From Deltaproteobacteria bacterium (GTDB taxonomy: Bacteria; Desulfobacterota; Deferrimicrobia; J040), in the NCBI GenBank assembly GCA_011773515.1, contig WVXK01000023.1:67263-131262 (forward strand): a stretch of DNA of 64,000 nucleotides. Reading direction: 5' to 3'. A program made the position numbers and the translations under genes. Below the pieces are notes generated by a model. It searched no databases. It had not been told where the DNA came from and was given only the letters and a program-made list of their open reading frames with translations. Within the stretch, counting starts at the first letter, position 1. Each line of letters starts with the position of its first letter. Of the stretch, positions 34,211 through 54,755 are shown piece by piece.

Positions 34211-34376
34211 AACGAAACATAAACAGTTCTGCTCCAGAGTATTCTACAAATTCGACTCACCTGCATCAAGCAGGAAAAGGGGTTGCAGAACCAGCCTACC
34301 TTATAAGATCTAAACGTTACTGTATTTTACGCCCAGACTTGTCGATGAACTCAGAAAGAGCTAAAGCGGAGGAGCC

Positions 34377-41273: not shown

Positions 41274-41554
41274 ACCCCATAGAACTCCTTTTCACAAACA
41301 ATGTAAATAGCCACTTCAGCAGACAGGGGATAGATTCTTCCCCGCATTTTAAGAATCCCTTCCGTTCGTGTTCATGGATTTACCGATTTACCCCTGACTC
41401 ATAAGAATATCTGAGGCCCCAGTTGATGTCTTCTGAAACGATGCGCCAAGCTCCACCCTGTGAAACAAGATCATCTCACGAGGAAGAAGGAATAATCTTG
41501 TCAGCGTTATGATCAAAAAATTTCGATGTATTTAAATCTGACCCTCCTGACCGG

Positions 41555-43684
41555 TTATGACAGGACAATTTTCCTCTTATTTGTGGGGTCTACTTTGTGT
41601 TCCCATGATAACCTTCTCCTGTCGAGAGCCTCTCGAACTACCCGTAAGTGATTTTCAGACTGCAGTTGATAGTCGAGGACGGACGTGTTGTCCCCGTGAA
41701 TTCTGTAGCAGTAGAGGACTTTTTTCAGGTGGGAAAAGCTGGTGACCTCACTCAGTTTAAGATACATATCATAATCAACAGCGTTTTTAATCTCCCTGTG
41801 AAATCCTGGCGTTCTATGCCAGTAAAGGCTCCTGAACATTCTGAAATGATGAACAATCATAGACTCGAGAAGGATAATCGGGTCATAATCGGGCCATGAA
41901 AACCCGGCGCAGACAAATTCTCCCTTTTCATTAATGATTTCATAATTGGAATAAACAAGGCCGAACTCAGGATGTTTTTCGAGAAAACCAACGGTAATCT
42001 CGACAGCTTCCGGTTTAAGCACATCGTCACTATCGAGCTGGCCTACAAACTCTCCCCGGCACATTCTCACCGCACGATTTGAAGCACCACCTATTCCCGC
42101 ATGGGGAATCCGCTCTATTCTTATCTTCTCATGCTTGCTGTACTCTTTATGCAAGAACTCGTATGTCCCATCTGTCGACCCATCATCGCAAATACACAAT
42201 TCCCAATCATCATACGTTTGTAAGATAACGCTCTCTATTGCCTCGCTGATAAATTTTTTTGAATTGTACGAGGGCATATAAATTGAAACTCTCGGAACAA
42301 ATCCGTTCTTCCTTCTTTCTCTCCTCATGACGGGAATCTTTCTCTCAAGGAGATTTTGCGTTTTTTCCCTTCCCTCTTCTCTCTTCGCCACATCGGGGTG
42401 ATTTTGATGAAATGCCCGAGCAGAATTTTCGGGAATGATGTAGGCACCTTTCAGATACATCCTGTAAAAAAACTCGATATCTTCTCCGCCCCAGAATGTG
42501 AACTCCTCATCGAAAAGCCCCGCTTTCACCGCATATGCTTTACGGAAAGATACATTCCCTCCAGAGGCATAGCGATAGGGCTCCAGGGACTTTCTCAAAA
42601 AATCTGTCTTTTTATAAATTCTATCTCGCCAATCCAGATACGGCTCGTCTTCGTCTCTGATACTTTCGGGCGCCATGGCCCGTCTCCTGGCAAATTGACT
42701 CCTTACTTCCTTCTCGATTTCAGAGGGCTCCAATCCGGCAGGATCGATAAATCCTCTGTCTCCTACCACGACAATGTTATTGTTGCATACATGAAACCAC
42801 TGTGCGTGCGAGCTTACAAACTCGGGAACCGGTATCATGTCGCAATCGAGGAGGATAACCACTTCGTTCGTCGACTCACTGATGCCCAGATTCCTTACAG
42901 CTGCGAGGCGGTAACCCTCATCATCCTGTTTGACATGACGCACATTCAAAACATTTTCGTACTGAGAGATAATATTTTCATAACCTTCACTGCTTCCATC
43001 ATCGGCAACGATTATTTCCATGAGATCACGGGGATAGTCCTGATACGTAAGTCCTCGAAGACTCCTATCGAGTTCAACTGGCCTGTTATACACGGGGATT
43101 ACTATCGAAACAGCTATTTTCGGCGTAAATGTTCTTTCCCGTAGAGCAGATTCGATAAGGGAATAGTCATTAGGAAAGCCTATTTCATAGGGAAAAACTC
43201 TGACTTTTTTTAAATTTTTCCTTTTTGCCTTCAGAGAAACATACCTTCTTACCTTTTCGTATATATTTACGGCGCTGTTCTTGGCAATCTTCAGTCCATC
43301 TAACGGCTCTAACTCGCCTTTGCAAAGATAATACTTCCCGCGAAACGGATGCATGGCGATATAGAGCAAAAGCTTGCTGTACGATTGGATGACGACAACC
43401 TCTTCCTTTCGGTTTGCCAGCAACTCCCTCGATAGGTACCGTAGGGGATTTTTCCTGCAAATTTTTACTCCCTTAGCTCTTAACCTCTCCTTTATATCGT
43501 TGCCAACCTCCCTGGATTCGATGAGAAATACGTTCTCCATGAAATTCTCAGATGAAAGAAGGAGTTCTCTTATAATGCTTTCATCGAGCATACCGACAAA
43601 CAGATATTCTCCTGGCCTCACCATGCCAGACCTCTTAATGCCTTCACTTTCAATGAAAAAGTCTAATCCGACCATAACCGACAC
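41555..43684 (-). CDS. Large glycosyltransferase with two tandem GT2 domains and an uncharacterised ~170-aa N-terminal region
   Basis: GT2 #1: VSIVIPVYNRPVELDRSL..ADDGSSEGYE..LLDCDMIP. GT2 #2: VSIYMPSYNSKKFISEAIESVILQTYDDWELCICDDGSTDGT..QLDSDDVL. 709 aa. Confidence 0.8.
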   Translation of the reverse strand: MSVMVGLDFFIESEGIKRSGMVRPGEYLFVGMLDESIIRELLLSSENFMENVFLIESREVGNDIKERLRAKGVKICRKNPLRYLSRELLANRKEEVVVIQSYSKLLLYIAMHPFRGKYYLCKGELEPLDGLKIAKNSAVNIYEKVRRYVSLKAKRKNLKKVRVFPYEIGFPNDYSLIESALRERTFTPKIAVSIVIPVYNRPVELDRSLRGLTYQDYPRDLMEIIVADDGSSEGYENIISQYENVLNVRHVKQDDEGYRLAAVRNLGISESTNEVVILLDCDMIPVPEFVSSHAQWFHVCNNNIVVVGDRGFIDPAGLEPSEIEKEVRSQFARRRAMAPESIRDEDEPYLDWRDRIYKKTDFLRKSLEPYRYASGGNVSFRKAYAVKAGLFDEEFTFWGGEDIEFFYRMYLKGAYIIPENSARAFHQNHPDVAKREEGREKTQNLLERKIPVMRRERRKNGFVPRVSIYMPSYNSKKFISEAIESVILQTYDDWELCICDDGSTDGTYEFLHKEYSKHEKIRIERIPHAGIGGASNRAVRMCRGEFVGQLDSDDVLKPEAVEITVGFLEKHPEFGLVYSNYEIINEKGEFVCAGFSWPDYDPIILLESMIVHHFRMFRSLYWHRTPGFHREIKNAVDYDMYLKLSEVTSFSHLKKVLYCYRIHGDNTSVLDYQLQSENHLRVVREALDRRRLSWEHKVDPTNKRKIVLS

Positions 43685-43729
43685 TTGGACGATTTACAGA
43701 TGGGTATCTTATTCGATAGATTATATTTA

Positions 43730-44773
43730 CTATTTCGATCGTCCTTTCCCTTTTGAAAATATAGCCCTCTTCACCATTTTCAACATATTTACAATTGGTT
43801 CAGGAAAATGTGTGACTATTACATTTATCAATGAAAGCCTTGAGACTTTCCAGATGCCTTGTCTTGCATTCCTATCGAAAGGATCTCTGATAAAGGCTCG
43901 CCAAAAAAGGTTCAAAGCGATATTGTAGTTTTCTTTTTCAAGCATTATATCCCCCCAGTAACTATACCCTCGGATGGAATTCTTTCTATCTTTACAATGA
44001 ATATTTTTTAAGACATCAACCAGTGAAACGCCATCTCCACACTCATCCATGATCTGGAGCCGGTCCCTACCAAACTTTCTTCTTTCCCTTGCCAGTTCAA
44101 CAGCCATAGAGGCATACTCATCTTGTATTGCTTTTCCAGATACAGAAATCGACTCTACGTTGAGTCTCCATTTATAGAGAAACTCGGGTATGTTTGCCAT
44201 GTCGTAATATTCTGCAATACGAAGCCATAGATCATAATCCTGAGATGCTTGAAATGCCTCTCTGTAATAACCGACCTTTTCGACACACTCTTTGCGGAAC
44301 ATGACCGAACCATGGGCAAACCTGTTTCCTTCCAGCAGCTTCTCTCTTAACTCGACTGTATCCGATATCGGCCTCTCCTCATCGACGACATTGCCTTTTT
44401 CATCAATTCTCAAATAATAGGTACCGACAAGGCCAATATTCCTGTGGCGATCCAGAAAATCCACCTCCTTTTCCAACCTCTCGGGAAGAGCAATGTCATC
44501 GGCATCCATCCGCGCTACATACTCGCTCCGGATCATCTCGATCCCCCTGTTCAGTGACCGGGTGAGCCCGAGATTCATCTCATTCTCCACGACCCTGATT
44601 CTTCTGTCACGGTAACCCTGCAGGATACTTCCCGTGCCGTCCGTTGAGCCATCGTTGACGATGAAGAACAAAAAGTCCTCAAAGGTCTGATTCAGGATGC
44701 TCTCAACGGCCTCCCGCAAATACCGTTCCCCGTTGTAGACGGACATGAGTAAGGTAACTTTTGTGTTCTCCAT
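43730..44773 (-). CDS. Glycosyltransferase family 2
   Basis: ..TLLMSVYNGERYLREAVESILNQTFEDFLFFIVNDGSTDGT..ARMDADDIAL..; 347 aa. Confidence 0.85.
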   Translation of the reverse strand: MENTKVTLLMSVYNGERYLREAVESILNQTFEDFLFFIVNDGSTDGTGSILQGYRDRRIRVVENEMNLGLTRSLNRGIEMIRSEYVARMDADDIALPERLEKEVDFLDRHRNIGLVGTYYLRIDEKGNVVDEERPISDTVELREKLLEGNRFAHGSVMFRKECVEKVGYYREAFQASQDYDLWLRIAEYYDMANIPEFLYKWRLNVESISVSGKAIQDEYASMAVELARERRKFGRDRLQIMDECGDGVSLVDVLKNIHCKDRKNSIRGYSYWGDIMLEKENYNIALNLFWRAFIRDPFDRNARQGIWKVSRLSLINVIVTHFPEPIVNMLKMVKRAIFSKGKGRSK

Positions 44774-44803
44774 GATTGTTGCACCGAGTTATTCCTGAAA
44801 ATT

Positions 44804-46177
44804 TCAGAACGCCAACCTCGCTATTTTCTTTATCCCTCTCGCAAAAAGAGACAATAATCTGGAAGCGGCCATGTCATCGATTTTTTGCATCATTTTTTTC
44901 TTTTGCAACTCAATCAAAAGTTTTTTGTCAAAATCCGTCCTTTCCTTGAAATCGTAATCCACAAAATTCTTACTGTCTCTGCCATAAAAATATTCCGCTC
45001 TCACATCGTAACCGGGAAGATAGAGGAGCCCTATATCATCTTTGTGCTCGTAAAGGTTATTTTCCAGGATATGCCTATACAGGGGGCTGTTTGGAATCCC
45101 GACAAAAACACCGAAACTGTACGAGTAGGGCTTCAAATCGTCAATCAGCTTCTTCGTTAGGAGGAAATCTTCATATGTCTCTCCCGGGACTCCCGTGATG
45201 AGGCTGCAATAAGCCCGGATATTGTATTTAGTTGCAAGGCATACCGCTTTCTCAATCTGCTCGATCGTTATCTTTTTGTTCAACATATCAAGAATCCTCT
45301 GGCTTCCGCTTTCAACCCCGAGATATACGGCTCCGCATCCCGAACGGCTCATCTCCTCAACCAAGCCCTCATCCGTGAGAGTGTCTACTCGTGTTTCGCA
45401 GGCCCAGGAAATATCGATGTTCTTCTTCCTTAATTTGCTGCAGAAATCTGAGACTCTCTTCCCGTCTAACGTAAAGTTATCTTCTCTGAAATAGATACCT
45501 CTCGCTCCGTATTCCCTTACCAAGTATTCGATTTCTTCAACAATTCTCAAGGCGCTAAAGGAGGTATAACGTCGCCCCCAGATCGAGCACACAGAGCAGA
45601 AGTTGCAGTCGAAAGGACAACCTCTGCTCGTGTTCATGGTGAACACCGGTTGCACATCCATCCACGGGCATGTGTAATCATAGGGAAGTCCATTGAATAT
45701 GTCCCACGGCTGAAATGGGAGGTGATCCAATTCTTTCAGCGACTCTTTTCTAACAACCCTCTCCCTCTCTTCCCCCGTGATAACATCCAGAATTACCTTT
45801 TCTCCTTCCCCTTGAACCACGTGATCCACAAATTCCGGTATCGTTTCCGGGGCGACACTCGCATGGGGTCCCCCCACAATGATTTTCCCTCTCCACTCGC
45901 CCCTTTCCCGTAGTTTCTCGAGCGAATGAGCCATTCTGAGCGTGTCACGGAAACAAATTGTGTTTGCGTGTATCGCCACGATATCAATATCTTTCTGTTT
46001 CATGAACCCTGATTCGATAAAATCCGTCGGCCGAAGATAGTTATCTATGAAAAATACCTTATGCCCCGCATTCCTGACGATTGACATGAGGAATCCGACT
46101 CCCAGCGGAGGTCTTTTTTCATCCGTAAAAAATGGGCTTACCCGGGGCGCGGCTGATGTTGTAAAGAGTATATTCAT
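44804..46177 (-). CDS. B12-binding-domain radical SAM protein
   Basis: N-terminal Rossmann-like cobalamin-binding region, then MNTSRGCPFDCNFCSVCSIWGRRY (CxxxCxxC); 457 aa. Confidence 0.8.
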   Translation of the reverse strand: MNILFTTSAAPRVSPFFTDEKRPPLGVGFLMSIVRNAGHKVFFIDNYLRPTDFIESGFMKQKDIDIVAIHANTICFRDTLRMAHSLEKLRERGEWRGKIIVGGPHASVAPETIPEFVDHVVQGEGEKVILDVITGEERERVVRKESLKELDHLPFQPWDIFNGLPYDYTCPWMDVQPVFTMNTSRGCPFDCNFCSVCSIWGRRYTSFSALRIVEEIEYLVREYGARGIYFREDNFTLDGKRVSDFCSKLRKKNIDISWACETRVDTLTDEGLVEEMSRSGCGAVYLGVESGSQRILDMLNKKITIEQIEKAVCLATKYNIRAYCSLITGVPGETYEDFLLTKKLIDDLKPYSYSFGVFVGIPNSPLYRHILENNLYEHKDDIGLLYLPGYDVRAEYFYGRDSKNFVDYDFKERTDFDKKLLIELQKKKMMQKIDDMAASRLLSLFARGIKKIARLAF

Positions 46178-46189
46178 ATCATTTGGCCG

Positions 46190-46978
46190 TTAATTCGATC
46201 CAGGCTTGCAGGCGGAAAAAAACAGCCTGTTTTTGAAGATCCGGATCTTCTCAAATCCCACATTATCCAGAAAATCATGTAACTCCCCTTTTGTGCAGAT
46301 GTGACGATGGAACTCATTCCCTGCACAGAGGGTGTCGGCTTCATCTCTCGTTTCCGGGAAGAAGGAACTACCAACCAATATCCCCCCCGCTTTTAACAGA
46401 CGATAAGTCTCGTAAATATATAACGGTATTTCCTCCCGGGAAAAATGCTCAATGCTCTCCATTGCTGTTACGACATCGAAGCTACCATCCTTGAAAGGCA
46501 TGTTTAAAACCGAGGCTCGAACGTAGAAAGTTTTACCGGTATTCCATAACCTTCTCGAAAATGCGACCGAAGTACCGTCTATGTCAACACACGTCACGCA
46601 ATTGGCGATACCGTCGAGCAGATATCCACCCCATCCAAGCCCGCTGCAGGTCTCGAGAATGTTTTTTCCTTTTCCAAAATACATAGCGAGCCCATACCGC
46701 AATAACATTTGCTTGTACCATCCACTGGACTGAAATTTCTCGTTGGAGGGAATATCCCTCTCGCCCACCAGTTCCATATCGACATCGCTTGTCTTTAGCT
46801 CGAGAATCTCGGTAACCCTGCTGTTGTGCCGAATGTATTTCCTGTAGATCCTGCGGAGAAAAATCTCCTCATTCGTCGCAGTGTAATCATTTTTGTGAGC
46901 TGCTGAGAACTTCTTCGTGCATGCCCGGGAGAAATCTTTTAAATATTTGAACAATGAGAACTCCACTCCGTTAATCAA
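46190..46978 (-). CDS. Class I SAM-dependent methyltransferase
   Basis: Motif I ..ILETCSGLGWGGYLL.., post-I acidic residue ..CVDIDG.., motif ..PFKDGSFDVVTAMESIEH..; 262 aa. Confidence 0.8.
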   Translation of the reverse strand: MINGVEFSLFKYLKDFSRACTKKFSAAHKNDYTATNEEIFLRRIYRKYIRHNSRVTEILELKTSDVDMELVGERDIPSNEKFQSSGWYKQMLLRYGLAMYFGKGKNILETCSGLGWGGYLLDGIANCVTCVDIDGTSVAFSRRLWNTGKTFYVRASVLNMPFKDGSFDVVTAMESIEHFSREEIPLYIYETYRLLKAGGILVGSSFFPETRDEADTLCAGNEFHRHICTKGELHDFLDNVGFEKIRIFKNRLFFSACKPGSN

Positions 46979-48170
46979 TCTCAGTTATGTCATAGGTCAC
47001 GGCAAGAAAGTTTCTTCCTGTCGCGTAATCAACACCCTTGAATTCTACGGGGATTCTCCACCAGAAGAGAAGTTCGCCACGACCTTTGGACCAGAGTGCA
47101 ACACTGACATTCCCGTTTGTATCGTTTATGCGAATATCTCTTATGACAATCTCTAACCGGTGGTTTCCTTTTTTAAGATCGATGAGTTTATCGTAGGCCC
47201 TATTCGTGGCCTGGAAGTAAAGTCCCTTCTCGTCGTCGCTAAATATAGCCGTATCTATATCCACGTCAGGATAATCTACTCCGGAATCGTATCTCATAGA
47301 AAGGGAAAAGGACTCTCCAGGAAACAGAACATCGCTATTGAATTCAATATCGGTAAAAGCTATGTTCTCATTCCCCGTGCAGATAGCCTCGATGCCGGTT
47401 TCTCCGTCATCAGAAAACAGGCGCTTGTATTCCCTTATTCCATCAGGTACGTTGTCAAAAAGCTTCACCTTTCCACCGTTTAAGAGAATGAGTCGCTCGG
47501 CGAACGTGGAGATAACGTGCATATTGTGGGAAACAATGAGGGTCGTCATTCCGTTCTTTTTCATTTCTCCGATCTTGTCGAAACATTTTTTCTGGAAGCC
47601 CTCATCCCCCACAGCCAGTACTTCATCGATGAGGAGTATGTCCGGCTCGCAGTAAGCTGCAACAGCGAATCCCAGACGAACAAACATCCCGCTGGAATAG
47701 TGTTTGACCGGAACATCGATGAAATCGTGAATACCGGCAAAGTCGACTATGGCGTCGAGCTTTTCATCCACTTCCCTCTTCGCCATCCCAAGAATGGCTG
47801 CGTTGACGTAGACGTTCTCTCTTCCTGAAAGGAGAGGGTGAAATCCAGCACCGACAGCGATAAGCGCTCCCATCTTGCCTCTGACAGATATTTTCCCCCT
47901 GTCGGGCCAGAAAATTCCATTGAGCATTTTCAAAAGAGTCGTCTTGCCGGAACCGTTCGGGCCGATGATTCCCAGAGTCTCTCCCCTTCGCATCTCAAAA
48001 GAAACATCGTCGACAGCCCAGAACTCTCCTTTTCGCAGGCGCGCCGAGTGGGAAGAGAGGCCGACCGTGTTTCTTGCGATATCCCATATCCCGTAGAGCA
48101 TAGACCTCTTTATGGATTTGCAATATTTCTTCGAAACATTCTCTACTTTTAGTGCGAAACCATCTTTCAT
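46971..48170 (-). CDS. wzt: Polysaccharide ABC transporter ATP-binding protein Wzt with a C-terminal substrate-binding beta-sandwich extension
   Basis: Walker A GPNGSGKTT, signature YSSGMFVRLGF, Walker B ILLIDEVLAVGD. About 150 extra C-terminal residues (..NVSVALWSKGRGELLFWWRIPVEFK..) resemble the Wzt_C carbohydrate-binding domain. Confidence 0.85.
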   Translation of the reverse strand: MKDGFALKVENVSKKYCKSIKRSMLYGIWDIARNTVGLSSHSARLRKGEFWAVDDVSFEMRRGETLGIIGPNGSGKTTLLKMLNGIFWPDRGKISVRGKMGALIAVGAGFHPLLSGRENVYVNAAILGMAKREVDEKLDAIVDFAGIHDFIDVPVKHYSSGMFVRLGFAVAAYCEPDILLIDEVLAVGDEGFQKKCFDKIGEMKKNGMTTLIVSHNMHVISTFAERLILLNGGKVKLFDNVPDGIREYKRLFSDDGETGIEAICTGNENIAFTDIEFNSDVLFPGESFSLSMRYDSGVDYPDVDIDTAIFSDDEKGLYFQATNRAYDKLIDLKKGNHRLEIVIRDIRINDTNGNVSVALWSKGRGELLFWWRIPVEFKGVDYATGRNFLAVTYDITEID

Positions 48171-48171
48171 T

Positions 48172-49026
48172 TTATACTCTTTCCGTAACCCTCGTTTCCG
48201 TCAGGTGAAAAACGATGATGCAGAAACAGGAAACGGCAAGAGACAGGAAAACAGCGAGGATATAACCGCTCTTTTCCCGAACAGTACCCGAGAGCATCAA
48301 ATCCCGGGGAACTGACACCAGGTAATAGAGGGGATTATATGTTGAGATCAACGCGAGCAGGCCAGACGCAGGCTTCGGGTAAAGAACGGGCGTTATGAAC
48401 ATGAGAAAGGTCATAACGATGGATAGTGCATTTCCCACATCCCGGACAACCGCGTTCAGCAGTGAAAAAATGAAGCCGAGTCCCACGGAGAGGACTATCA
48501 GAGGGAGCAGGAGGAGAGGGAGAAAGACCACGTTCAAGCTGGGAGCAAATCGATAGTAAACGCAGAGAGCGAGAACGAGGGAAAACTGTATGATAAATGC
48601 GACGATAGACCGTCCCTGTGATGCCAGAACGAGAGACTTCTTGGAGAAGTTTATCATGACGATCATCGATCCGGCCTTAACGAGGGCATCACCCCCCGAA
48701 ACGAGGCCCGCCGAAAAAAGCTGCCACAGGGCAACGCCGAGGAGGCCGTAGATCGCATAGGGAGCATCAATGGGACCGATGGCGAAAACCCCTGAACGGT
48801 TGAGCAGAACGAAGGTCCCGACGCTGACCAGTGGGATGATAAAGCTCCAGAAGACGCCGATGAAAGACTGCTTGTAGAGCGATATGAAATCTCTCTTGAA
48901 GAGTTGGTAGGTGAGCCACCTGTTGGCCGAAATATCCTCGACGATCTCTGAAAAAACGGACAGGTAGCCCTTTTTCAGAGAGTTGTCTGGCTCATACGTG
49001 AACATTTTCACCTTTTCTCGTCCCAT
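48172..49026 (-). CDS. wzm: Polysaccharide ABC-2 transporter permease Wzm
   Basis: 284 aa, 6 TM, ABC-2 type; its stop abuts the wzt start. Confidence 0.8.
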   Translation of the reverse strand: MGREKVKMFTYEPDNSLKKGYLSVFSEIVEDISANRWLTYQLFKRDFISLYKQSFIGVFWSFIIPLVSVGTFVLLNRSGVFAIGPIDAPYAIYGLLGVALWQLFSAGLVSGGDALVKAGSMIVMINFSKKSLVLASQGRSIVAFIIQFSLVLALCVYYRFAPSLNVVFLPLLLLPLIVLSVGLGFIFSLLNAVVRDVGNALSIVMTFLMFITPVLYPKPASGLLALISTYNPLYYLVSVPRDLMLSGTVREKSGYILAVFLSLAVSCFCIIVFHLTETRVTERV

Positions 49027-49041
49027 AGTATCACGATGGTC

Positions 49042-49821
49042 TTATTTGAAGTCCCTTTTCGAAAAAATGAAGTTCGAAATGAAAATGAGTAGCACGAGAT
49101 AAAAGAAGAAGTAAAGGAATACGTAGCCTATCTTTCCTGCATCGAGGTGTACCCCGTAAACTGCCACGTTCTTGAAGTTGAAGTTCTCAAGATTCGGAAG
49201 TATGTAATACACGGCGAGGGGCAAATACTTACCAAGGAGCGTCTCCGCCCTCTCGCCAAAATATTTCAGGTCAGGGCTCAGGTGCCCGATAAAAAATATC
49301 GAAAGGGTGAAGATGGCACTCAAAGTAGTCGTTGTGAAGGAAGAAAACAGCATGGCAACGGCCGTTAGGATCAGCAGCTCGAGGTAGATCATAAGAGCGA
49401 CGAAAAGAATCTCCATACGGATGTGCCCGCTCTGCACGAATGTGGTCAAAATGAGGCCAGAGGTCATTGCAAGGTTCGTGAGAAAAATCGTGACGGAAAG
49501 CCCCGAGAACTTACCGATCAAGAATGCGAACCGGGACACCGGCTTTGAGACGATAGCGTAAATGGTTTTTTTATCCACCTCTTTGCTGACAAGGGTAATA
49601 CCGACGAAGATCGCGATAATCGCCCCAAAAATGTGCACGCATGCAAGGCCCACATTTATGACTACTCGCTCGAAATCTCCCAGGGACAACTCGGCGATGA
49701 AGTAGGACAGGCCGATCAAAAGGATAGCGAACATGAGGAGGCTGTAAAGTATACGATCCCGGATAGTCTCCCTGAACGTATTGACAGCGATCGTCCCGAC
49801 GCTCATGCAACTACCCTCCAA
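49042..49821 (-). CDS. ABC-2 family permease (PilI/GldF-like)
   Basis: 259 aa, about 6 TM, no nucleotide-binding domain; overlaps the upstream ATPase gene by 11 nt. Confidence 0.7.
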   Translation of the reverse strand: MEGSCMSVGTIAVNTFRETIRDRILYSLLMFAILLIGLSYFIAELSLGDFERVVINVGLACVHIFGAIIAIFVGITLVSKEVDKKTIYAIVSKPVSRFAFLIGKFSGLSVTIFLTNLAMTSGLILTTFVQSGHIRMEILFVALMIYLELLILTAVAMLFSSFTTTTLSAIFTLSIFFIGHLSPDLKYFGERAETLLGKYLPLAVYYILPNLENFNFKNVAVYGVHLDAGKIGYVFLYFFFYLVLLIFISNFIFSKRDFK

Positions 49822-50743
49822 CCTTTTCTATGAAGAGTTCTTCGAGATTTACCCTTACCGGAATGATGGCCGTTATGTTACCCCTTGCGTCTCGTGCCGC
49901 GTCGATCACCCTGTTTGCCGACACTTCAGAGGGAACGTGAAATACGAGGACGTTCCCCCGTAAAAAATGTGATACGAACGAGGCGTTCAATGCAGCGATG
50001 AGCTCATCGGTTCTCTCGATCCCCTCAACGCAGATCTCATAGTATTTAATGGCCTCTCGTCCCAAGAGATCACCGATCCTGCCCTCTGCAACCTTTCTCC
50101 CTCTGTGAAGAATGCACACTCTGTCGGCAAGGAGTTCAACATCGGAAATTATGTGGGAGCTGAAAAAAACCGTTTTCCCTCTATTTTTCAAATCCCGGAT
50201 CAGCTCCCTGATCTCCAGCCTTCCGATAGGATCGAGACCGGACATGGGTTCGTCGAGAATCACCAGTTCCGGGTCGTTTATCAGAGCCTGAGCCATCCCT
50301 ATTCTCTGAAGCATACCCTTCGAAAACTTCCGGAGCTGCAGGTGAATCGCATCTTTCAACCCCACGATCTCCAGTAACTCTTCTGCTCTTCTCTCCCGTT
50401 CCCCTTTTTTCAAACCGAAGAGGTTCCCGCAGAACATGAGGATCTCCCAGGCGGTGAGGTATTCGTAAAAATATGGGTGCTCCGGCAGAAACCCTATTCT
50501 CTTTTTCTGCTGCACGTTACCGAGTGGCTCATCGAATATCCTCACCTCTCCTTCTGTAGGATATATGATGGAGTTGAGAATCTTAATCGTCGTGGTTTTA
50601 CCAGCCCCGTTCGGACCCAGGAACCCGTATAGTTCGTTTGTATGCACGGATAGAGATATCCCATCGAGGGCCACAAAGGGCTTGAGAAAAAATCCCATTC
50701 GGTAAATTTTTTTCAGTCCCGTAATCTTGATAGCCTCTTCCAT
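49811..50743 (-). CDS. ABC transporter ATP-binding protein (PilH/CcmA-like)
   Basis: Walker A GPNGAGKTT, signature FSKGMLQRIGMA, Walker B LVILDEPMSGLD; 310 aa. Confidence 0.85.
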   Translation of the reverse strand: MEEAIKITGLKKIYRMGFFLKPFVALDGISLSVHTNELYGFLGPNGAGKTTTIKILNSIIYPTEGEVRIFDEPLGNVQQKKRIGFLPEHPYFYEYLTAWEILMFCGNLFGLKKGERERRAEELLEIVGLKDAIHLQLRKFSKGMLQRIGMAQALINDPELVILDEPMSGLDPIGRLEIRELIRDLKNRGKTVFFSSHIISDVELLADRVCILHRGRKVAEGRIGDLLGREAIKYYEICVEGIERTDELIAALNASFVSHFLRGNVLVFHVPSEVSANRVIDAARDARGNITAIIPVRVNLEELFIEKVGG

Positions 50744-50763
50744 CTCAATATTCCCCGCAACGC

Positions 50764-51645
50764 TTACCTTTTCTTGTAAAGCCGTAATCTCTCTTTTACA
50801 ATCGAACTCTTCACGTTCCCCGTATCTCTCTCTATATAGTAATACCCCCCAAATGGCTCCTTCGGTATCTCCCCGAGCAAGCCCAGTCTCACCAGATCAC
50901 CCAAGGTTTCCGGGCTCTTTCCCTTGATATTGCTGTACTCATTTGCGGCGATCTGGAGAAGGTTCAAATCTCTTTCAACGACGACCCGCTTCATCCTGCC
51001 CTCGATTTTTTCCCTCAGTACGGGATCTTCAGTCTGATTATACATCTTCTCCAGAAAAGCAAGCGCCGTATCGGGTTTATTCGCCTCAGAAAGCAGCCGC
51101 GAGGCCAGAAAAGGGAGATAGGCAGGGGAACCGGGTAACTTGCTCGCCATAATGATGTACTCCGACGCCAGGTCGAATTGCTGGAGATAAAAAAAGTAAT
51201 TAAAGCCGATATAGAAAGGAAACCTCCACCTATCGGGGAGATTTCGCATCCCCTTTTTTAGGACGAGGATGCTTTCATCGACAAAGTCACGATGGGAAGC
51301 GAGGATGATCCCTCCAAAAAGATAGGCCGTCTCGAACTTCCTATCGAGAGTAGTGACGAGGTCCAAAGAGCGGTACAACCAGTCGAGGCCGTTTACGGTA
51401 TATTGCTTTTCCCCGGCATATTGAACGCACCTGAGCCAGGTGACATCACTGACGAACGCATCGAAACCCAGTGAAAATCTTTTAACAGCATCCACATCGG
51501 GAAGAAAGATGTATTTTGCCTGCGAGATTTTTGTTCGGTTGTCGATAACCATCTGCGTTGTTGCCGAGGATATAACGAGAACAAGGGCTATGAACAGAAC
51601 CGGGAGAGAACGTATCTTCATATCGAGCTCTTTATTCTCGTTCAT
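50764..51645 (-). CDS. Hypothetical exported/membrane-anchored protein (PilG-like position ahead of the ABC pair)
   Basis: 293 aa; N-terminal hydrophobic segment LPVLFIALVLVISSA then a helical repeat-like domain. Assignment is by position only. Confidence 0.5.
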   Translation of the reverse strand: MNENKELDMKIRSLPVLFIALVLVISSATTQMVIDNRTKISQAKYIFLPDVDAVKRFSLGFDAFVSDVTWLRCVQYAGEKQYTVNGLDWLYRSLDLVTTLDRKFETAYLFGGIILASHRDFVDESILVLKKGMRNLPDRWRFPFYIGFNYFFYLQQFDLASEYIIMASKLPGSPAYLPFLASRLLSEANKPDTALAFLEKMYNQTEDPVLREKIEGRMKRVVVERDLNLLQIAANEYSNIKGKSPETLGDLVRLGLLGEIPKEPFGGYYYIERDTGNVKSSIVKERLRLYKKR

Positions 51646-53568
51646 CGATTTTTACCCGTAAGTCATTCAACGTCTGATCATCAAGCATAATCAGTTTTTC
51701 GGCATACGTGTCGAGTCCTTTAAGCCCTGCGTATTTTTTATATACAGAGAGGGCCCTCTTGTAAAGAAAGCTCGCCTCTTCCTTTTCTCCTCGTATTTCT
51801 CTCATTTTACCAAGAAGGTAATATCCAATGGCAAAATTCGGCTCCGTTGATACGGCTTTCACCAATATCCGCTCTGCTTCACCGTTTCTGCCTGACTTCG
51901 AAAAGAGAGTCGCTAGATTTTTCATCGCAAAAACATTGTGGGGTTCGATGACGAGTTGTGCGGAATAGAGGCGGATGGACTCCTCATCAAGGTTCCCCAC
52001 TTCATCATTTGTATAGAGCCCTCTATGTATTCCCTGCTGCAAGAGAAAAGCCTTCCTTCCGCGGAGCGAAGCGGACCTCTTCTGTCTTCGTAATGCATTT
52101 TCCACCTCGTAAATCGCCATCTTAAAGTGAAATATATCCCCTTTTTTCAGAAACGTTCGGTAATGAATCGCCCCTTTCGTCTCATGCTTTCTCCCGTCCA
52201 GAAAGTCAGCAGCAGTTGCCACGCGCAACAACGTGATTGCAGAATCGAAGCTGCCCATGCGCGCCTGCCGCTCCCCCAGAGAGGAAAGATAGAAAGAGCT
52301 GACCGTAGCCGTACAGTAGGTCACCGAGGCGACGGTAAACAGGGCGAGGGGTACCTTCATCCCCTTCCGGAGAACTGCCTCCTCCCATTCGATTTCGGCT
52401 TCACCGATATAGAGCCCCACAATGGCAAGCATGACGAGAGGCAAAGCGAAGGTGTGATAGAGCGAATCGACTGAGGCATGCACCAAAAATGATGCCCCCG
52501 CACCGAACGTGATCGCTCGCAACGGGTGAGGGACGCTTCTCGGCGGAAAGATGATCTTCAGGAGCAGCGAGATCACAAATCCAAGGTAGAGGATCAATCC
52601 GATCACCCCCTGTTCAACGAGAACCTGGAGGTGCTCGTTGTGCAGGGTCCGAGCCTTTTTTCCATACAGCGACACGGCTCCGGCAACGGGAGATTCATAT
52701 TGATCGTAGTAATATTTGAAGTTGCCGAGACCGACCCCGAGGGGATGGTCCGACACTACACGCAGGCCCGCATCGTAGATGCTCAAACGAGAATACCGGT
52801 AAGCGTCTGCCCGCGATACTACTCTTTCCCGCAGGGGATTGGGAAGGACAGCGAAAAGGACGAAAAATGAGAGGATGATGGCAAGCGCCTTCCATCTCAG
52901 ACGGAAAAACAGAACCAGCGAGATGCCGGTAAGGCACGATATGGCTGCACCTCTCGACTTTGTGAGGATAAGAGCTGCAAGAGACAGGAGGAAGAAAAAT
53001 ATGTAGATACCTTTGTCCCTCACCCGATCTTTTCCAAACAGGGCCAGTGCGATGAACACGATGGAAGAGATGCTCATCAGCTCACCCATGAAATTCGGGT
53101 TGAAGAACGACCCCGCCGGCCTCGGGTCGTGAAGGACGAACCTCTGATAGAGTTGTAATCCCATCCCCACGATCACTGACAGGGAGAGGAAAAGAGCAAG
53201 ATGGTGAATTCTAACCGTACGCCGTCTTGCGGCATCGGTGATCAGAGCGAAAAAGGATAGGCACACCATGATATTTATGGCCCACTGAAGCGAGGGCCAA
53301 GGGGCTGAAGCGATCGCTCCGTTTACGAAGGATATGAGAGTATAGGAGGTGAAAAAAAAAGCGGGAGGGTGAAATTACGGGGGATTCCAAACCCACCTCT
53401 TATGAAACATAACGCCAGGACGAGAATTGTACCCACCCTTATGAGAAAAGTGGGCAACGGGGTGGTGCCACCGTTCACGAGGGAAAGTCCCAGCAATAAA
53501 AAAAGTGGCAGAGAGGAAAATACATTCCCCTCTGCCACTTGGTTCTCACAAACAATAGAATTCATCAA
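51632..53568 (-). CDS. O-antigen ligase family (Wzy_C) polytopic membrane protein with C-terminal TPR repeats; reading frame interrupted at an A9/T9 homopolymer
   Basis: ORF 53323..53568 (81 aa, two TM helices) and ORF 51632..53269 (545 aa) are in different frames. Adding one T (or removing two) at the tract fuses them into ..PRNFTLPLFFF-TSYTLISFVNGAIASAPWPSLQWAINIMVCLSFF... The Wzy_C signature ..ALILTKSRGAAISCL..RTLHNEHLQVLVEQGVIGLILYLGF.. is present, and the C-terminal ~200 aa are TPR-like. Confidence 0.6.
53352..53360 (-). repeat. Homopolymeric A9 (plus) / T9 (coding strand) tract at the frameshift inside the O-antigen-ligase-like gene
   Basis: Plus 53351-53361 reads G AAAAAAAAA G. Confidence 0.9.
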
Positions 53569-53571
53569 ACC

Positions 53572-54054
53572 CTACACGTCGTTTGCAACGTTTACCAGAG
53601 AGTTCAAGTCGTTGATGGTCCATGAATCTAGGTCGGCATCGTTGTCTATGTTCCCGATCGCCCCAGCGGTGAACTGGTTTTGGCCCACGTCGATATTAGC
53701 GAGACCAGCCGTGTCATCGATAGTATCTGTAGATATGATAGAAAAATCAGAGCCTGGCCCCGGAGGGGTCGCGATTCCCTGATCCCCGCCGAGAGCATAG
53801 TCGTAGCGCTGACTCGTCCCCACGGGTTCCCAGTTGACCGCGTCGAACGTATTGTAGGTGCTGTACTCCCCAAAGTAAGATGTCTCAGCGGTGTATACCG
53901 CCTTCAGGTTCGTCTTCGCCTCGGACTGCTTCGACTTTGCCTGGAACTTAAGAAAGTTGGGGATCGCTATCGCCGCGAGAATACCGATAATCGCCACAAC
54001 GATCATCAGCTCGATGAGGGTAAAACCTTTTCTGCTTCTCACTCTTTTAATCAT
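53572..54054 (-). CDS. pilA: Type IVa major pilin PilA (copy 2)
   Basis: AGGAGG (54060-54065) then ATG at 54054: MIKRVRSRKG|[24 protein letters not shown]... The ORF track extends to 54159 via an upstream TTG, which is unlikely. Mature protein ~150 aa with no Cys. Its stop lies 4 nt before the ligase-like gene. Confidence 0.9.
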   Translation of the reverse strand: MIKRVRSRKGFTLIELMIVVAIIGILAAIAIPNFLKFQAKSKQSEAKTNLKAVYTAETSYFGEYSTYNTFDAVNWEPVGTSQRYDYALGGDQGIATPPGPGSDFSIISTDTIDDTAGLANIDVGQNQFTAGAIGNIDNDADLDSWTINDLNSLVNVANDV

Positions 54055-54142
54055 TTTTTCCTCCTTGTTGGGTATTGTATAAGTCTGATCAGATCCGTTC
54101 AATTTTTTTTTCCTCCTTAACGAAATATTTACCCAATCAATT

Positions 54143-54160
54143 TTCAACAATCGTGCCAAA
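54143..54160 (-). promoter_or_regulatory. Candidate sigma-54 promoter for pilA copy 2
   Basis: Minus strand reads TTGGCACGATTGTTGAAAA: GG and the -12 dinucleotide are spaced correctly, but -12 is GA rather than GC. About 90 nt upstream of the ATG. Confidence 0.3.
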
Positions 54161-54218
54161 ATCTATCCGAAAGAGGTTAAAACAAATTATCTTTTTTTTT
54201 CAAATGTTTGTCGGATTT

Positions 54219-54248
54219 AAAAAAAAAGACCGCGACGTTCGAAGGTCT
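54219..54248 (-). terminator. Putative intrinsic terminator after pilA copy 1 (weak 5-bp stem followed by U9 on the minus strand)
   Basis: Minus strand: AGACC-TTCGAACGTCGC-GGTCT then T9 (plus A9 at 54219-54227). Confidence 0.3.
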
Positions 54249-54317
54249 GGGATTGGCAAATTGTGACAAAATTTGTCAGGAAAATGGAACCTATGTGACA
54301 TTTTGCGTCCGTAAATT

Positions 54318-54755
54318 TTAAATGTCATCGATTAGATTTACAAGGTTCTTTATCTGGTCAATCTGCCAGATATCGTACGTTACATCCTGATCCAGGTTTC
54401 CCCAAGAGTATGCGCTGAACGATATGTTATCCGCCCCGGGTGTGATGCCTGCCGGAACGGGGTCGCCGATGCCGTACAGTTCACTTCCGACGGAATATGT
54501 GTAGTATTTGAGGGTACCCACGGGAACCCACCGTATCGTTGAAAAACTAGCAGAATACATGTCGAATTCGGCATAATATGAGAGCTCGCAATTATATATG
54601 GCACCGAGGTTCGACTTTGCTTCTGATTTCTTCGTTTTCGCCACGAAGTTGTTGAAGTTGGGAATTGCAATCGCCGCAAGAATACCGATGATGGCAACGA
54701 CGATCATCAGTTCGATGAGGGTAAAGCCATTCTCATCTTTCTCAATTTGAATCAT
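54318..54755 (-). CDS. pilA: Type IVa major pilin PilA (copy 1)
   Basis: [10 protein letters not shown]|[24 protein letters not shown]..; 145 aa. The first 24 mature residues are identical to copy 2; the C-terminal domain diverges. Confidence 0.9.

Follow-up and report, generated by a model that had tools for sequence, protein, structure and literature searches.

A type IV pilus gene cluster with two glycan insertions, one of them a WaaL-like ligase gene broken at a recurrent T9 run

The window, the whole stretch of 64,000 nucleotides analysed here, contains a Myxococcus/Geobacter-style type IVa pilus cluster that carries two glycan insertions (Table 1). The framework of the cluster is composed of pilR, pilA, the genes at the pilG, pilH, and pilI positions, pilD, pilS2R2, and pilMNOPQ. 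The first insertion, a gene for a WaaL-fold ligase, separates the major pilin gene from the ABC module; the second, an ABC-transporter-dependent polysaccharide pathway, lies between the ABC module and pilD. All genes named in the initial annotation (pilins, Wzy_C ligase, pilGHI-like ABC transporter, Wzm/Wzt, methyltransferase, B12-radical SAM enzyme, and GT2s) are present on the minus strand according to the open reading frames, Pfam, and NCBIfam, and the wecA and further glycosyltransferases that it placed beyond them were found as a plus-strand GT2, a GT9, a GT1, the WecA-family transferase, and another GT1. The pilR-position regulator directly upstream of the pilins is kept in all close relatives. 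At the other end, PilD is followed by a second sigma54 two-component pair and then by pilMNOPQ. The window also contains BamA/TamA-like and TamB genes, indicative of a diderm host.

Table 1 Features of the pilus and glycan cluster, in order of decreasing position
Feature	Position	Strand	Basis
Sigma54-dependent response regulator, pilR position	54848..56245	-	Pfam Response_reg + Sigma54_activat + HTH_8
Type IV pilin 1, 145 aa	54318..54755	-	Pfam N_methyl
Sigma54-like -24/-12 element TGGCACGATTGTTGAA	54143..54158	-	One mismatch to TGGCAC-N5-TTGCW
Type IV pilin 2, 160 aa, probable major pilin	53572..54054	-	Pfam N_methyl + Pilin_PilA
Intrinsic-terminator-like hairpin + T7	53496..53540 (hairpin 53503-53540)	-	Terminator scan
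WaaL-like Wzy_C ligase, C-terminal TPR domain	51632..53565	-	Pfam Wzy_C + TPR
Recoding site, T9 run (CCG CUU UUU UUU UCA)	53352..53360	-	ORF frames
Membrane-anchored TPR-like protein, 293 aa, pilG position	50764..51645	-	AF2 model, synteny
ABC ATPase (DrrA/GldA-like), pilH position	49811..50743	-	Pfam ABC_tran; NCBIfam drrA/GldA below cutoff
ABC-2 permease (ABC2_membrane_2), pilI position	49042..49821	-	Pfam
Wzm-type ABC-2 polysaccharide export permease	48172..49026	-	Pfam ABC2_membrane; NCBIfam galactan Wzm/RfbD weak
Wzt-type ATPase, ~150-aa C-terminal extension	46971..48170	-	NCBIfam TagH/Wzt-like
Class I SAM methyltransferase	46190..46978	-	Pfam Methyltransf_11/25
B12-binding radical SAM enzyme	44804..46177	-	Pfam B12-binding + Radical_SAM
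GT2 glycosyltransferase	43730..44773	-	Pfam Glycos_transf_2, E 1e-33
Two-module GT2	41555..43684	-	Two Glycos_transf_2 stretches
GT2, opposite strand, end of variable low-GC block	40425..41273	+	Pfam
GT9	39314-40372	-	Pfam, conserved flank 36090..40372
GT4-family glycosyltransferase (also listed as GT1)	38263-39333	-	Pfam, conserved flank
WecA/MraY-family initiating transferase	37259-38266	-	Pfam, conserved flank
GT4-family glycosyltransferase (also listed as GT1)	36090-37385	-	Pfam, conserved flank
Prepilin peptidase PilD, end of the pil-glycan block	35338..36102	-	Pfam A24_N_bact + Peptidase_A24

Pilin 2 matches the NCBIfam model typeIV_PilA_Myxo with E 6e-37, and pilin 1 reaches E 3e-26, below the cutoff. 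Pilin 1 has the mature start FTLIELM and ends in LIDDI; pilin 2 possesses the leader MIKRVRSRKG and ends in VANDV. The first ~41 mature residues of pilin 2 are identical or nearly identical in Deferrimicrobiota-like relatives and closely similar in Nitrospira pilins. A C-terminal Ser/Thr, the site glycosylated by TfpO and TfpM enzymes, is absent from both pilins of this genome, which end in DDI and NDV, and the genome thus lacks a TfpO/TfpM-type site. Across the loci of the ligase family, 45 of 123 adjacent and 43 of 89 distal pilins end in Ser (37-48%).

From pilin 2 to the two-module GT2 the genes are spaced by gaps of 1-45 nt or overlap; the initial annotation had read tiny gaps, from pilin 1 onwards, as implying one or a few transcripts. 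In the 263 nt between pilin 1 and pilin 2, however, the sigma54-like element TGGCACGATTGTTGAA lies ~90 nt ahead of pilin 2, whose ATG at 54054 is preceded by a strong Shine-Dalgarno sequence (AAGGAGG); the genes do not form one seamless transcript. The match to the consensus makes TGGCACGATTGTTGAA a putative sigma54 promoter. The strong terminator-like hairpin has a 16-bp stem with 8 GC, and follows pilin 2 within the first 25 codons of the ligase ORF (codons ~9-23). A strong hairpin and T-run occupy the equivalent position in nine lineages with differing stem sequences, and the stem has three compensatory pairs across six sequences. The hairpin is a conserved, probable terminator of the pilin gene, embedded in the 5' end of the ligase gene.

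The ligase contains the Pfam Wzy_C domain (PF04932, E 5e-17). Its full-length product of 644 aa requires a frame change and, once merged, can be aligned with intact homologs over its whole length. A PDB sequence search returned WaaL (7tpg, E 1.5e-12), a lipid A-core ligase and the sole relative with a solved structure. The AF2 model of an intact homolog (P0005, pLDDT 89) has 13 transmembrane (TM) helices and a ~200-aa TPR domain, with 7tpg as the top PDB match in a fold search (TMt 0.62). The ligase has a WaaL-like core of 12 TM helices to which a 13th helix and a TPR domain are added, the latter probably on the periplasmic side. The Arg and His residues invariant in the family are kept in the window protein. 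The TPR domain distinguishes it from the solved WaaL proteins of 403-413 aa, and both this domain and the extra TM helix set it apart from TfpO/TfpM, which are 420-470 aa long. The initial annotation had compared the locus with pilA-tfpO and had placed the ligase in the PglL family. The Wzy_C gene does lie 3' of the pilin gene, but a Pfam search at E<=5 found neither PglL_A nor Wzy_C_2 in the ligase, and TfpO/PglL membership is rejected on these grounds together with the size, the extra TM helix, the TPR domain, and the pilin C-termini.

The locus is most unusual for a frame break in the ligase gene that had been read through when 51632..53568 was described as a single gene. The coding region is split between frames, with one ORF at 53323-53565 (80 aa) and another at 51632-53269 (545 aa); the open frame of the second spans 51632-53374. 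The two meet at the T9 run, where a -1 shift or one added U joins ORF1 to ORF2. The same run and break are found in L004/L086, L087, L168, L169, and L005, in about five sequence variants of 77-95% nucleotide identity from several studies (the set includes one near-duplicate pair at 98.6%). In a separate lineage, L015, an A9 run ~10 codons upstream of the T9 position breaks the frame in the same direction. Intact homologs cover the junction region in the alignment. Purifying selection acts on both halves of the gene, with omega of 0.3-0.6 upstream and 0.14-0.2 downstream of the junction (deep clades, dS 0.6-1.2). Moreover, for the 29-codon stretch that precedes any possible start, pN/pS is 0.10 in the -1 frame versus 1.4 and 5.7 in the other frames. 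The recurrence of T9, the A9 lineage, selection on both halves, and the low pN/pS in the shifted frame only indicate that the frame change is programmed recoding. The most likely route resembles that of Shigella mxiE, in which transcriptional slippage adds one U; nine nucleotides, the length of the RNA:DNA hybrid, is the known threshold for slippage by the polymerase. In-frame A9 runs are tolerated in dprA of this genome and in pilI of relatives, so slippage at 9-mers is not very efficient.

Downstream of the ligase, the 293-aa protein at the pilG position has no family in Pfam or NCBIfam searches; its AF2 model (pLDDT 88) comprises an N-terminal TM helix and helical repeats, for which a fold search gave generic TPR matches only. 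In the second insertion, the C-terminal extension of Wzt is probably a glycan-cap-binding module. Pfam Wzt_C is present in the Wzt orthologs of L004, L168, and L171; the extension in the window has no Pfam match, Wzt_C included, and aligns weakly with that of L004. With wzt next to it, and with the O8/O9a and S-layer systems as precedents, the methyltransferase is a candidate chain-terminating cap enzyme. The two-module GT2 is a candidate polymerising enzyme, and its homologs come after Wzt and a methyltransferase in many Nitrospira loci. The B12-radical SAM enzyme reached no NCBIfam equivalog. The AT-richness ascribed to the glycan genes holds for 40425-46978, the lowest 6.5-kb stretch (GC 0.446 versus 0.485 for the window), but not for Wzm/Wzt, the ABC module, and the ligase, which are of average GC. 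The block between Wzt and the plus-strand GT2/GT9 varies between related genomes and resembles serotype-variable glycan loci; L165 has the same GT2-GT9 junction. In the conserved flank, NCBIfam searches gave ECA_wecA at 99 bits along with heptosyltransferase models, none of which reached its cutoff. LPS loci typically contain GT9 heptosyltransferase-like and WecA-like genes, which counts against a pilin acceptor. An ABC-transporter-dependent glycan pathway is present as first described, although "complete" overstates it because the glycan block contains no nucleotide-sugar synthesis genes. The proposed likeness to Geobacter xap agrees with the literature, where xap is an ABC-transporter-dependent exopolysaccharide pathway; the reported product of these pil neighbours is an exopolysaccharide and not a glycoprotein.

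Related loci in Nitrospirota and Deferrimicrobiota-like MAGs bear out the gene neighbourhood. Among loci retrieved through ligase similarity alone and with enough flanking sequence, a pilin gene lies directly upstream of the ligase in 124 of 126, the gene of the 293-aa protein directly 3' in 127 of 139, and the ABC ATPase and permease downstream in 114 of 117; Wzm is found within 9 kb in 48 of 62. This mode of retrieval and the dominance of Nitrospira mean that the counts are not phylogenetically independent. At these frequencies of the pilin and the pilG/H/I-position genes, chance in a single genome does not account for the Wzy_C gene standing next to type IV pilins. A compact relative, L167, has the pilin, ligase, G/H/I genes, WecA-like, GT1, and PilD without Wzm/Wzt, whereas a distant relative with pilin, G/H/I, and PilD lacks the ligase and shows the Myxococcus-like arrangement.

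We tentatively propose, with a probability of about 0.45, a pilus-linked glycan pathway with a twice-throttled ligase and the pilin as favoured acceptor. The WecA-family enzyme would prime undecaprenyl phosphate in a presumed first step, the GT4, GT9, and GT2 enzymes would assemble an adaptor, and the two-module GT2 would make the repeat polymer at the cytoplasmic face. The methyltransferase may then cap the chain, to be exported by Wzm/Wzt with the C-terminal module of Wzt reading the cap. In the periplasm the ligase would move the glycan en bloc onto an acceptor recruited via the TPR domain. By analogy with S-layer O-glycosylation, the most likely acceptor would be the pilin encoded immediately upstream. 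An S-layer review describes slg clusters in which wzm/wzt occur together with a 2-O-methyl cap and a Wzy_C O-OTase; it reports TPR motifs at the C-terminus of the protein O-OTases WsfB and PglL, and WsaA as a TPR protein of its own. The same logic is proposed here for the pilus. Several observations weigh against it: neither pilin ends in Ser/Thr, the sole relative with a solved structure acts on lipid A-core, the Geobacter xap genes reportedly make an exopolysaccharide, and the Wzt extension in the window lacks a Wzt_C match. Transcription of the ligase would have to pass the pilin terminator in its 5' end, and full-length ligase would arise only upon the frame change at T9, most likely when RNA polymerase inserts one U, or alternatively by -1 ribosomal slippage on U_UUU_UUU. 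The initial annotation, which had suggested protein O-glycosylation or a pilus-associated exopolysaccharide, is partly confirmed in its observations and partly supported in its interpretation.

The ligase and Wzm/Wzt could instead make a surface polysaccharide, either O-antigen-like on lipid A-core or Xap-like on another anchor; their place in the pil cluster would then reflect joint regulation of pili and polymer in adhesion or biofilm formation. This reading is doubtful, though far from negligible. Among relatives only WaaL has a solved structure, and it also leads the fold matches, the host is diderm, and Wzm/Wzt, the WecA-family and GT9 heptosyltransferase-like enzymes, and the variable low-GC block form a classical O-polysaccharide signature; in Geobacter, xap loss reportedly costs about half of the exopolysaccharide. 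The ligase, however, is tied more closely to the pilin and ABC module (>97% of loci) than to Wzm/Wzt (65-77%), its presumably periplasmic TPR domain matches WsfB/PglL rather than solved WaaL, many associated pilins end in Ser, and the LPS of G. sulfurreducens is described as rough, without O-antigen.

Other alternatives concern the frame break. A DNA phase-variation switch, with T9 OFF and T10 ON through replication slippage and faithful decoding, would leave populations mixed for ligated glycan, as with Neisseria pgl genes. A homopolymer tract within a surface-glycan gene is what a classic contingency locus looks like, two independent tracts (T9 and A9) fall within one loop of this gene, and the Nitrospira ortholog L068 is broken at a G9 tract. 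We nevertheless find such a switch unlikely: every assembly (about five T9 variants and the A9 lineage) has the out-of-frame length, although these are consensus sequences that could hide a minority of ON cells, and a search of a 5.8-billion-protein database returned no full-length, in-frame close relative (at least 64% identical, corresponding to the T9 clade). An all-OFF switch is also hard to sustain with a coding sequence under purifying selection. Equally improbable is programmed -1 ribosomal frameshifting without polymerase editing on U_UUU_UUU, or A_AAA_AAA in L015. Both tracts contain a perfect zero-frame X_XXY_YYZ heptamer, and the predicted product is the same as from U insertion. 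Yet no convincing downstream RNA stimulator was found: a conserved hairpin or pseudoknot 5-9 nt downstream of the tract and an upstream Shine-Dalgarno-like stimulator are absent, and the sole hairpin, a weak one of 5 bp, is 21 nt away from T9, with none in L015. Moreover, both tracts have the nine nucleotides of polymerase slippage, whereas a ribosome would need seven. Decay to a pseudogene or an assembly error, leaving an island that functions without the ligase, is very improbable. Gene callers do split the gene, NCBI, JGI, and Logan each annotating the 3' part only, but several studies yielded distinct sequences with the same T9, and homopolymers that lie in frame elsewhere are correctly called. 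The gene has no further stops, keeps every residue invariant in the family, and shows omega well below 1 on either side of the break. The T9-dependent frame of the ligase, kept across diverged lineages, suggests that the pilus-linked surface-glycan system is throttled deliberately.

The locus is composed of a type IV pilus gene cluster with an embedded ABC-transporter-dependent glycan pathway, in which a WaaL-fold ligase carrying a TPR domain is the fixed neighbour of the pilin. Every gene named in the initial annotation was recovered from the ORFs with Pfam and NCBIfam (see table). NCBIfam provides no equivalog-level name for any of the glycan genes, and Rfam and tRNA scans of the island found nothing. 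The gene order is of the same type as pilR-pilA-pilGHI-pilD-pilS2R2-pilMNOPQ, which we take to be the order in Myxococcus xanthus. The pil genes of that order are reported as clustered; in the window, the glycan genes interrupt the pil cluster at two points. An ABC-dependent polysaccharide set, as in pathways of the O8/O9a type, is present, comprising Wzm and Wzt, a WecA-like polyprenyl-phosphate sugar-1-phosphate transferase, and multi-domain glycosyltransferases (GTs), and the methyltransferase gene adjoins wzt. The C-terminal extension of the window Wzt (150 aa) has no Pfam match, and the orthologs in three related loci (L004, L168, and L171) carry Wzt_C (PF14524). The AT-richness ascribed earlier to the glycan genes as a whole holds for 40425-46978 (GC 0.446 vs 0.485), to which the low GC is limited. 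Between PilD and the second histidine kinase, a 157-aa ORF without a Pfam or NCBIfam family is overlapped by a 190-aa ORF on the other strand, and either or neither may be a gene. Just downstream of pilQ and chorismate synthase lies a 607-aa fusion of 3-dehydroquinate synthase with a C-terminal TPR region.

The island does not form a seamless unit from pilin 1 onwards, since 263 nt part pilin 1 and pilin 2. This spacer contains a sigma54-like TGGCAC-N5-TTGA element, and pilin 2, which is probably the major pilin and is more conserved than pilin 1, has its AAGGAGG Shine-Dalgarno sequence there. The spacer also holds three 9-nt A/T runs adjoining repeated TGTCAC motifs and the sigma54-like element, and a T9 comes after a small hairpin 3′ of pilin 1. 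These runs might form a weak terminator, set promoter spacing, or serve as binding sites for a regulator.

Features of the locus and of its surroundings (window coordinates)
Feature	Position	Strand	Basis or remark
topA	start of series, read from 58.5 kb downwards	minus	ORFs, Pfam, NCBIfam
In-frame A9 (Lys run)	58827-58835		near 3′ end of dprA-like gene
Sigma54 response regulator, pilR position	54848-56245	minus	Pfam
Pilin 1	54318-54755	minus	
Further 9-nt A/T runs in pilin spacer	54103-54111, 54192-54200, 54219-54227		
Pilin 2	53572-54054	minus	stop at 53572
Ligase gene, Wzy_C + TPR	51632-53565	minus	ATG at 53565
ORF1 of ligase	53323-53565	minus	80 aa
Hairpin + T7	53496-53540	minus	ligase codons ~9-23
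T9 run	53352-53360	minus	ORF2 frame open from 53374
ORF2 of ligase	51632-53269	minus	545 aa
293-aa protein, no family	50764-51645	minus	
ABC ATPase	49811-50743	minus	
ABC-2 permease	49042-49821	minus	
Wzm	48172-49026	minus	
Wzt with C-terminal extension	46971-48170	minus	
Methyltransferase	46190-46978	minus	
B12-radical-SAM enzyme	44804-46177	minus	
GT2	43730-44773	minus	
Two-module GT2	41555-43684	minus	
GT2	40425-41273	plus	
GT9, GT4-family GT, WecA/MraY-family transferase, second GT4-family GT	36090-40372	minus	
Prepilin peptidase PilD	35338-36102	minus	
157-aa ORF	34317-34790	minus	overlapped by 190-aa plus-strand ORF
Second histidine kinase/sigma54 regulator pair, then pilM, N, O, P, Q	past PilD	minus	
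3-dehydroquinate synthase-TPR fusion	22245-24068		607 aa

The ligase had been taken as one gene, and its two parts, ORF1 and ORF2, in fact lie in different frames, which overlap around the T9 run. A −1 shift or one extra T at T9 yields a 644-aa protein that aligns end to end with intact homologs, and the trans-frame peptide predicted across T9 is ...NFTLPLFFFTSYTLISF... The same T9 and the same frame break are found in the related loci L004/L086 (78% amino-acid identity to the window), L087, L168 and L169, and L005 (64% amino-acid identity by BLASTP, 68% in a full-length alignment of the repaired protein). The T9 sequences belong to different studies (NCBI, JGI, and Logan assemblies), with pairwise nucleotide identities of 77%-98% over 514 nt around T9. 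In L015 (Ca. Deferrimicrobia MAG JBFFNJ010000008.1), which is the single available sequence of its lineage, the break is located at an A9 (L015:7942-7950) about 10 codons 5′ of where T9 lies, and has the same direction (−1 or one extra nucleotide) within the same cytoplasmic loop. The ligase is intact in L006, L009, L013, L165, L166, and the Nitrospira orthologs except L068 (Nitrospira sp. cluster3_bin.86). The latter loses the frame in the middle of the gene, at a G9 (L068:2248-2256) in a Gly-rich TM segment; either the assembly is wrong there or the ligase family includes a phase-variable tract.

We consider programmed recoding of the ligase established as a conserved feature of one clade. 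Omega is 0.3-0.6 in the upstream part and 0.14-0.2 in the downstream part, with dS of 0.6-1.2 between deep clades, and the out-of-frame length has persisted through saturating synonymous divergence. Over the 29 codons from T9 to the first possible start, the −1 frame shows a pN/pS of 0.10, against 1.42 for the zero frame and 5.7 for the +1 frame. The −1 frame contains a TAA eight codons ahead of the T9 end, followed by no start codon before the ATG of ORF2, which is TTG in L005. With purifying selection in the −1 frame and no usable start, this segment is therefore translatable only by a frame change. Translation of ORF2 (545 aa) alone from its own ATG was rejected because the 29 upstream codons are under selection; the absence of a Shine-Dalgarno sequence and of any start codon after the in-frame TAA also counters it.

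A sequencing or assembly error at T9 was likewise rejected. The same T9 is present in the MAG GCA_012975005.1, in the Logan assemblies ERR2564003 and ERR2564004, and in diverged lineages elsewhere, and intact 9-mers occur in frame in other genes. The window agrees with JABAOC010000702.1 (GCA_012975005.1) and both Logan assemblies over the ~20 kb compared. In-frame A9 runs occur in the dprA-like gene, close to its 3′ end, and in the pilI-position gene of L168 (L168:8072), and 9-mers are therefore tolerated in other coding regions. The gene calls of NCBI, JGI, and Logan either cut the T9-clade ligase to 384-545 aa or cover its 5′ part with a spurious ORF on the opposite strand; the databases therefore hold only N-terminally shortened ligases of this clade. 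A search of 5.8 billion proteins returned no full-length close relative (at least 64% identical, as within the T9 clade), and its sole full-length match was the intact homolog P0005, which is 39% identical. The T9/A9 site exposes an automatic annotation that truncates the ligase in every genome of the clade.

Transcriptional slippage, ribosomal frameshifting, and phase variation would all yield the same protein. Slippage ranks first, owing to the lack of a stimulatory RNA structure and to the length of both tracts. Bacterial RNA polymerase slippage is reported to become evident at 9 nt, the length used by Thermus dnaX, and T9 and A9, which are independent tracts, both have exactly nine nucleotides. 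In Shigella flexneri mxiE, overlapping ORFs are joined by one non-templated U added at a run of U's. The window locus has the same arrangement, with two overlapping ORFs, a run of at least nine A/T, and conservation of the run and both ORFs in diverged homologs, and this conservation points to slippage in the window ligase. The two cases differ in their targets, as mxiE is a plasmid-borne transcription activator, whereas the window site lies in a membrane glycan ligase. Ribosomal −1 frameshifting ranks second. An in-phase heptamer is available to it, U_UUU_UUU in the zero frame (C UUU UUU UUC context) or A_AAA_AAA in L015, but the site is followed by no conserved stimulatory RNA structure. Folding the downstream RNA of each lineage gave nothing convincing as a stimulator, with a weak 5-bp hairpin 21 nt downstream of T9 in some lineages and an MFE of −4.5 kcal/mol downstream in L015; neither a conserved structure 5-9 nt downstream nor an upstream SD-like element was found. 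DNA phase variation at T9/A9 is placed third. That other genes carry 9-mers in frame suggests a modest level of slippage, which fits a throttle on the ligase.

Directly after the pilin 2 stop, the 5′ part of the ligase ORF contains a 16-bp GC-rich hairpin followed by T7, a predicted intrinsic-terminator-like element of the probable major pilin gene. A strong hairpin with a T-run is present after pilin 2 in every lineage examined (n = 9), with or without a frame break. The stems differ in sequence among lineages, and those of the T9 clade have compensatory changes in three stem pairs. The T-run simultaneously provides the codons for the Leu/Phe residues with which the first TM helix begins. Since no promoter can fit between pilin and ligase, transcription of the ligase should need terminator read-through. 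Ligase output would thus require read-through first, and then the frame change for translation.

The merged ligase matches PF04932 (Wzy_C) with an E value of 3.7e-17, and Wzy_C and TPR repeats are the only elements found by Pfam. The initial annotation had compared it with TfpO and PglL. Membership of PglL is not borne out, as seven family members gave no match to PglL_A (PF15864) or Wzy_C_2 at E ≤ 5. The relation to TfpO extends to the Wzy_C domain and the pilin gene directly upstream, but neither to the 644-aa length with TPR nor to the window pilins, which have no C-terminal Ser/Thr. The best NCBIfam model, an exosortase-associated putative O-glycosylation ligase, scores far under its cutoff. 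The best PDB sequence match of the family profile is Cupriavidus metallidurans WaaL (7tpg_B, hmmsearch E 1.5e-12), and the same structure is the top PDB fold match (Foldseek TMt 0.62) of an AlphaFold2 model of P0005, the 39% identical homolog, computed from a 37-sequence alignment (pLDDT 89, pTM 0.88). The model is composed of 13 TM helices, a catalytic loop behind helix 9, and a TPR solenoid of ~200 aa. The invariant His H309 (TLHNEHLQ) and invariant Arg residues are kept in the window ligase, and its Arg-rich loops obey the positive-inside rule. The TPR domain is predicted to be periplasmic, since the 12 helices of WaaL begin and end in the cytoplasm, the loops are positive-inside, and a 13th helix is added. 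The ligase shares the 12-TM core fold and the periplasmic catalytic loop of WaaL (PDB 7TPG), which modifies lipid A-core and lacks both the TPR domain and the 13th helix. WaaL uses Und-PP-linked glycans, ABC-exported ones included. The model of the 293-aa protein encoded next to the ligase shows an N-terminal TM helix and TPR-like repeats. No NCBIfam model matched this protein or the ABC-2 permease, and a search with the 293-aa protein returned only MAG and metagenome proteins, with no Geobacter or Myxococcus match. Its apparently split gene in L165 is an N-gap artefact.

The repaired ligase was aligned with its homologs, and a search of genome and metagenome contigs with this alignment gave about 160 loci; all their ORFs were scored against the window proteins, and the counts cover loci with enough flank. 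Most loci are from Nitrospira/Nitrospiraceae, at 25-30% identity over the full length, and a minority from 'Deltaproteobacteria' or Deferrimicrobia MAGs; a Candidatus Deferrimicrobia MAG is among the close relatives of the window. The proposed linkage between the Wzy_C gene and the pilin is confirmed in two phyla, with a pilin gene directly 5′ of the ligase in 124/126 loci. The 293-aa protein follows directly 3′ (127/139) and the ABC ATPase and permease come next (114/117), while Wzm is located within 9 kb of the ligase in 48 of 62 loci and directly adjoins the ABC module in 40 of these 62, all counts being inflated by shared ancestry and ligase-based retrieval. In both phyla the ligase is thus seated between pilA and the ABC module. 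The genes past Wzt vary among close relatives (methyltransferases, pyruvyl transferase, GT11, GT1), and the junction of the opposite-strand GT2 with GT9 is also found in L165. The compact relative L167 has pilin, ligase, the G/H/I genes, WecA-like, GT1, and PilD without Wzm/Wzt, and a distant relative has two pilins, G/H/I, and PilD without a ligase. It follows from these ligase-bearing and ligase-free loci that the association of the pilin with the pilG/H/I-position module is the older one, to which the ligase and glycan genes were added. L167 also encodes, between topA and pilR, a PMT_2 (GT-C) glycosyltransferase that carries a fusion to numerous TPR repeats (L167:2946-4784), a second TPR-bearing lipid-linked-sugar transferase adjoining pilin genes.

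The window pilins end in ...LIDDI (pilin 1) and ...VANDV (pilin 2), neither in Ser/Thr, and both contain Pro/Gly/Ser/Thr-rich loops. PglL enzymes modify many periplasmic proteins, at internal sequons of low complexity. In pilins of the family loci, a conserved (N/D)DV stands at the C-terminus or is followed by two more residues, and the two-residue tails are typically X-Ser (DDVIS, NDVSS, NDVTS in pilins upstream of the ligase, loci L007-L164). About 40% end in Ser (45/123 adjacent, 43/89 distal; relatedness uncorrected), and 10/123 adjacent pilins end in Thr. By analogy, the terminal Ser would correspond to the acceptor position of the TfpO/TfpM type. No correlation exists between the frame break and the pilin C-terminus, as pilin 2 ends in NDV in both broken and intact lineages.

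We assign a probability of roughly 0.45 to the pilin or another pilus protein being the acceptor of the glycan. This reading is favoured by the position of the gene, the TPR domain, the S-layer precedent, and the Ser-ending pilins of the family. That the glycan is instead a polysaccharide of the cell surface, anchored to a lipid or otherwise, is a serious possibility, which we consider less probable than not. The relation of the ligase to WaaL, the LPS-like companion genes nearby (GT9 and WecA-like), and the reports on Geobacter xap agree with it. WaaL genes usually lie with core (waa) or O-antigen genes, whereas the fixed neighbours of the ligase are the pilin and the ABC module. A broader form of the pilus-protein reading is tentative and, taken as a whole, rather unlikely: the ligase-TPR protein and the pilG/H/I-position module would constitute an undescribed pilin-modification pathway that places a polymer on pilin, with a ligase dose set by slippage in one clade. 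Nitrospirota and Deferrimicrobiota-like bacteria would then join a long, capped, ABC-exported polysaccharide to their type IV pilin, and T9/A9 slippage behind the embedded pilin terminator would set the fraction of sugar-coated pilin.

The S-layer precedent is provided by the slg clusters of Geobacillus stearothermophilus and Paenibacillus alvei, in which wzm/wzt are reported together with an enzyme for a methyl cap and a Wzy_C transferase (WsaB/WsfB). C-terminal TPR motifs are reported in WsfB and PglL, and WsaA is a separate TPR protein. In the slg clusters, and by proposal in the window locus, a lipid-linked polymer is made by multi-domain GTs, with a terminal-cap methyltransferase and Wzm/Wzt export, and a Wzy_C enzyme transfers it to a surface filament or lattice protein. 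The TPR is fused to the transferase (WsfB) or encoded beside it (WsaA), a likeness of architecture, and the glycan genes are of lower GC. However, the slg hosts are Gram-positive with an S-layer protein as acceptor, the initiating enzyme is WbaP-like instead of WecA-like, and pilus genes and a recoding site are described for the window locus, not for slg. Like the ligase gene, tfpO adjoins pilA. The TfpO/TfpM enzymes have 420-470 aa without a TPR domain and glycosylate the C-terminal Ser/Thr of pilin. They share with the window system the Wzy_C domain and the Ser/Thr ends of many family-locus pilins, and differ from its ligase, which has a 13th TM helix and TPR.

By gene order alone, the locus also resembles Myxococcus pilA-pilG-pilH-pilI-pilD, with an ABC ATPase and an ABC-2 permease behind pilA. 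The three genes for the novel protein, the ATPase, and the permease lie between pilA and pilD, as do those for Myxococcus PilG/H/I; we know of no ligase gene between pilA and pilG in Myxococcus. [quoted passage not shown]

The components of the locus are of known kinds. To our knowledge, neither a ligase-TPR family fixed between pilA and the ABC module, nor its spread in Nitrospirota and Deferrimicrobiota-like bacteria, nor the combination of a homopolymer recoding site with an intragenic pilin terminator has been described, and we know of no recoded member of the O-antigen-ligase family. A literature search for transcriptional slippage and O-antigen ligase found both terms together in none of the top results. 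T9/A9 represents a clean case of programmed recoding supported by comparative genomics in a chromosomal, non-mobile gene. The recoding is tied to a terminator, and the U-tract of this terminator also encodes the beginning of a TM helix. The WaaL-fold/TPR ligase would be of interest to glycoconjugate engineering if long ABC-exported polymers go to protein.

Nitrospira are the main nitrite oxidisers of soils and wastewater plants, and Deferrimicrobiota-like bacteria are common in sediments; as far as we know, the pilus has been studied experimentally in neither. The ligase family gives a testable handle on how these bacteria dress their pili or surface, and may clarify the role in the pilus of the enigmatic PilGHI transporter and of the Geobacter xap genes.
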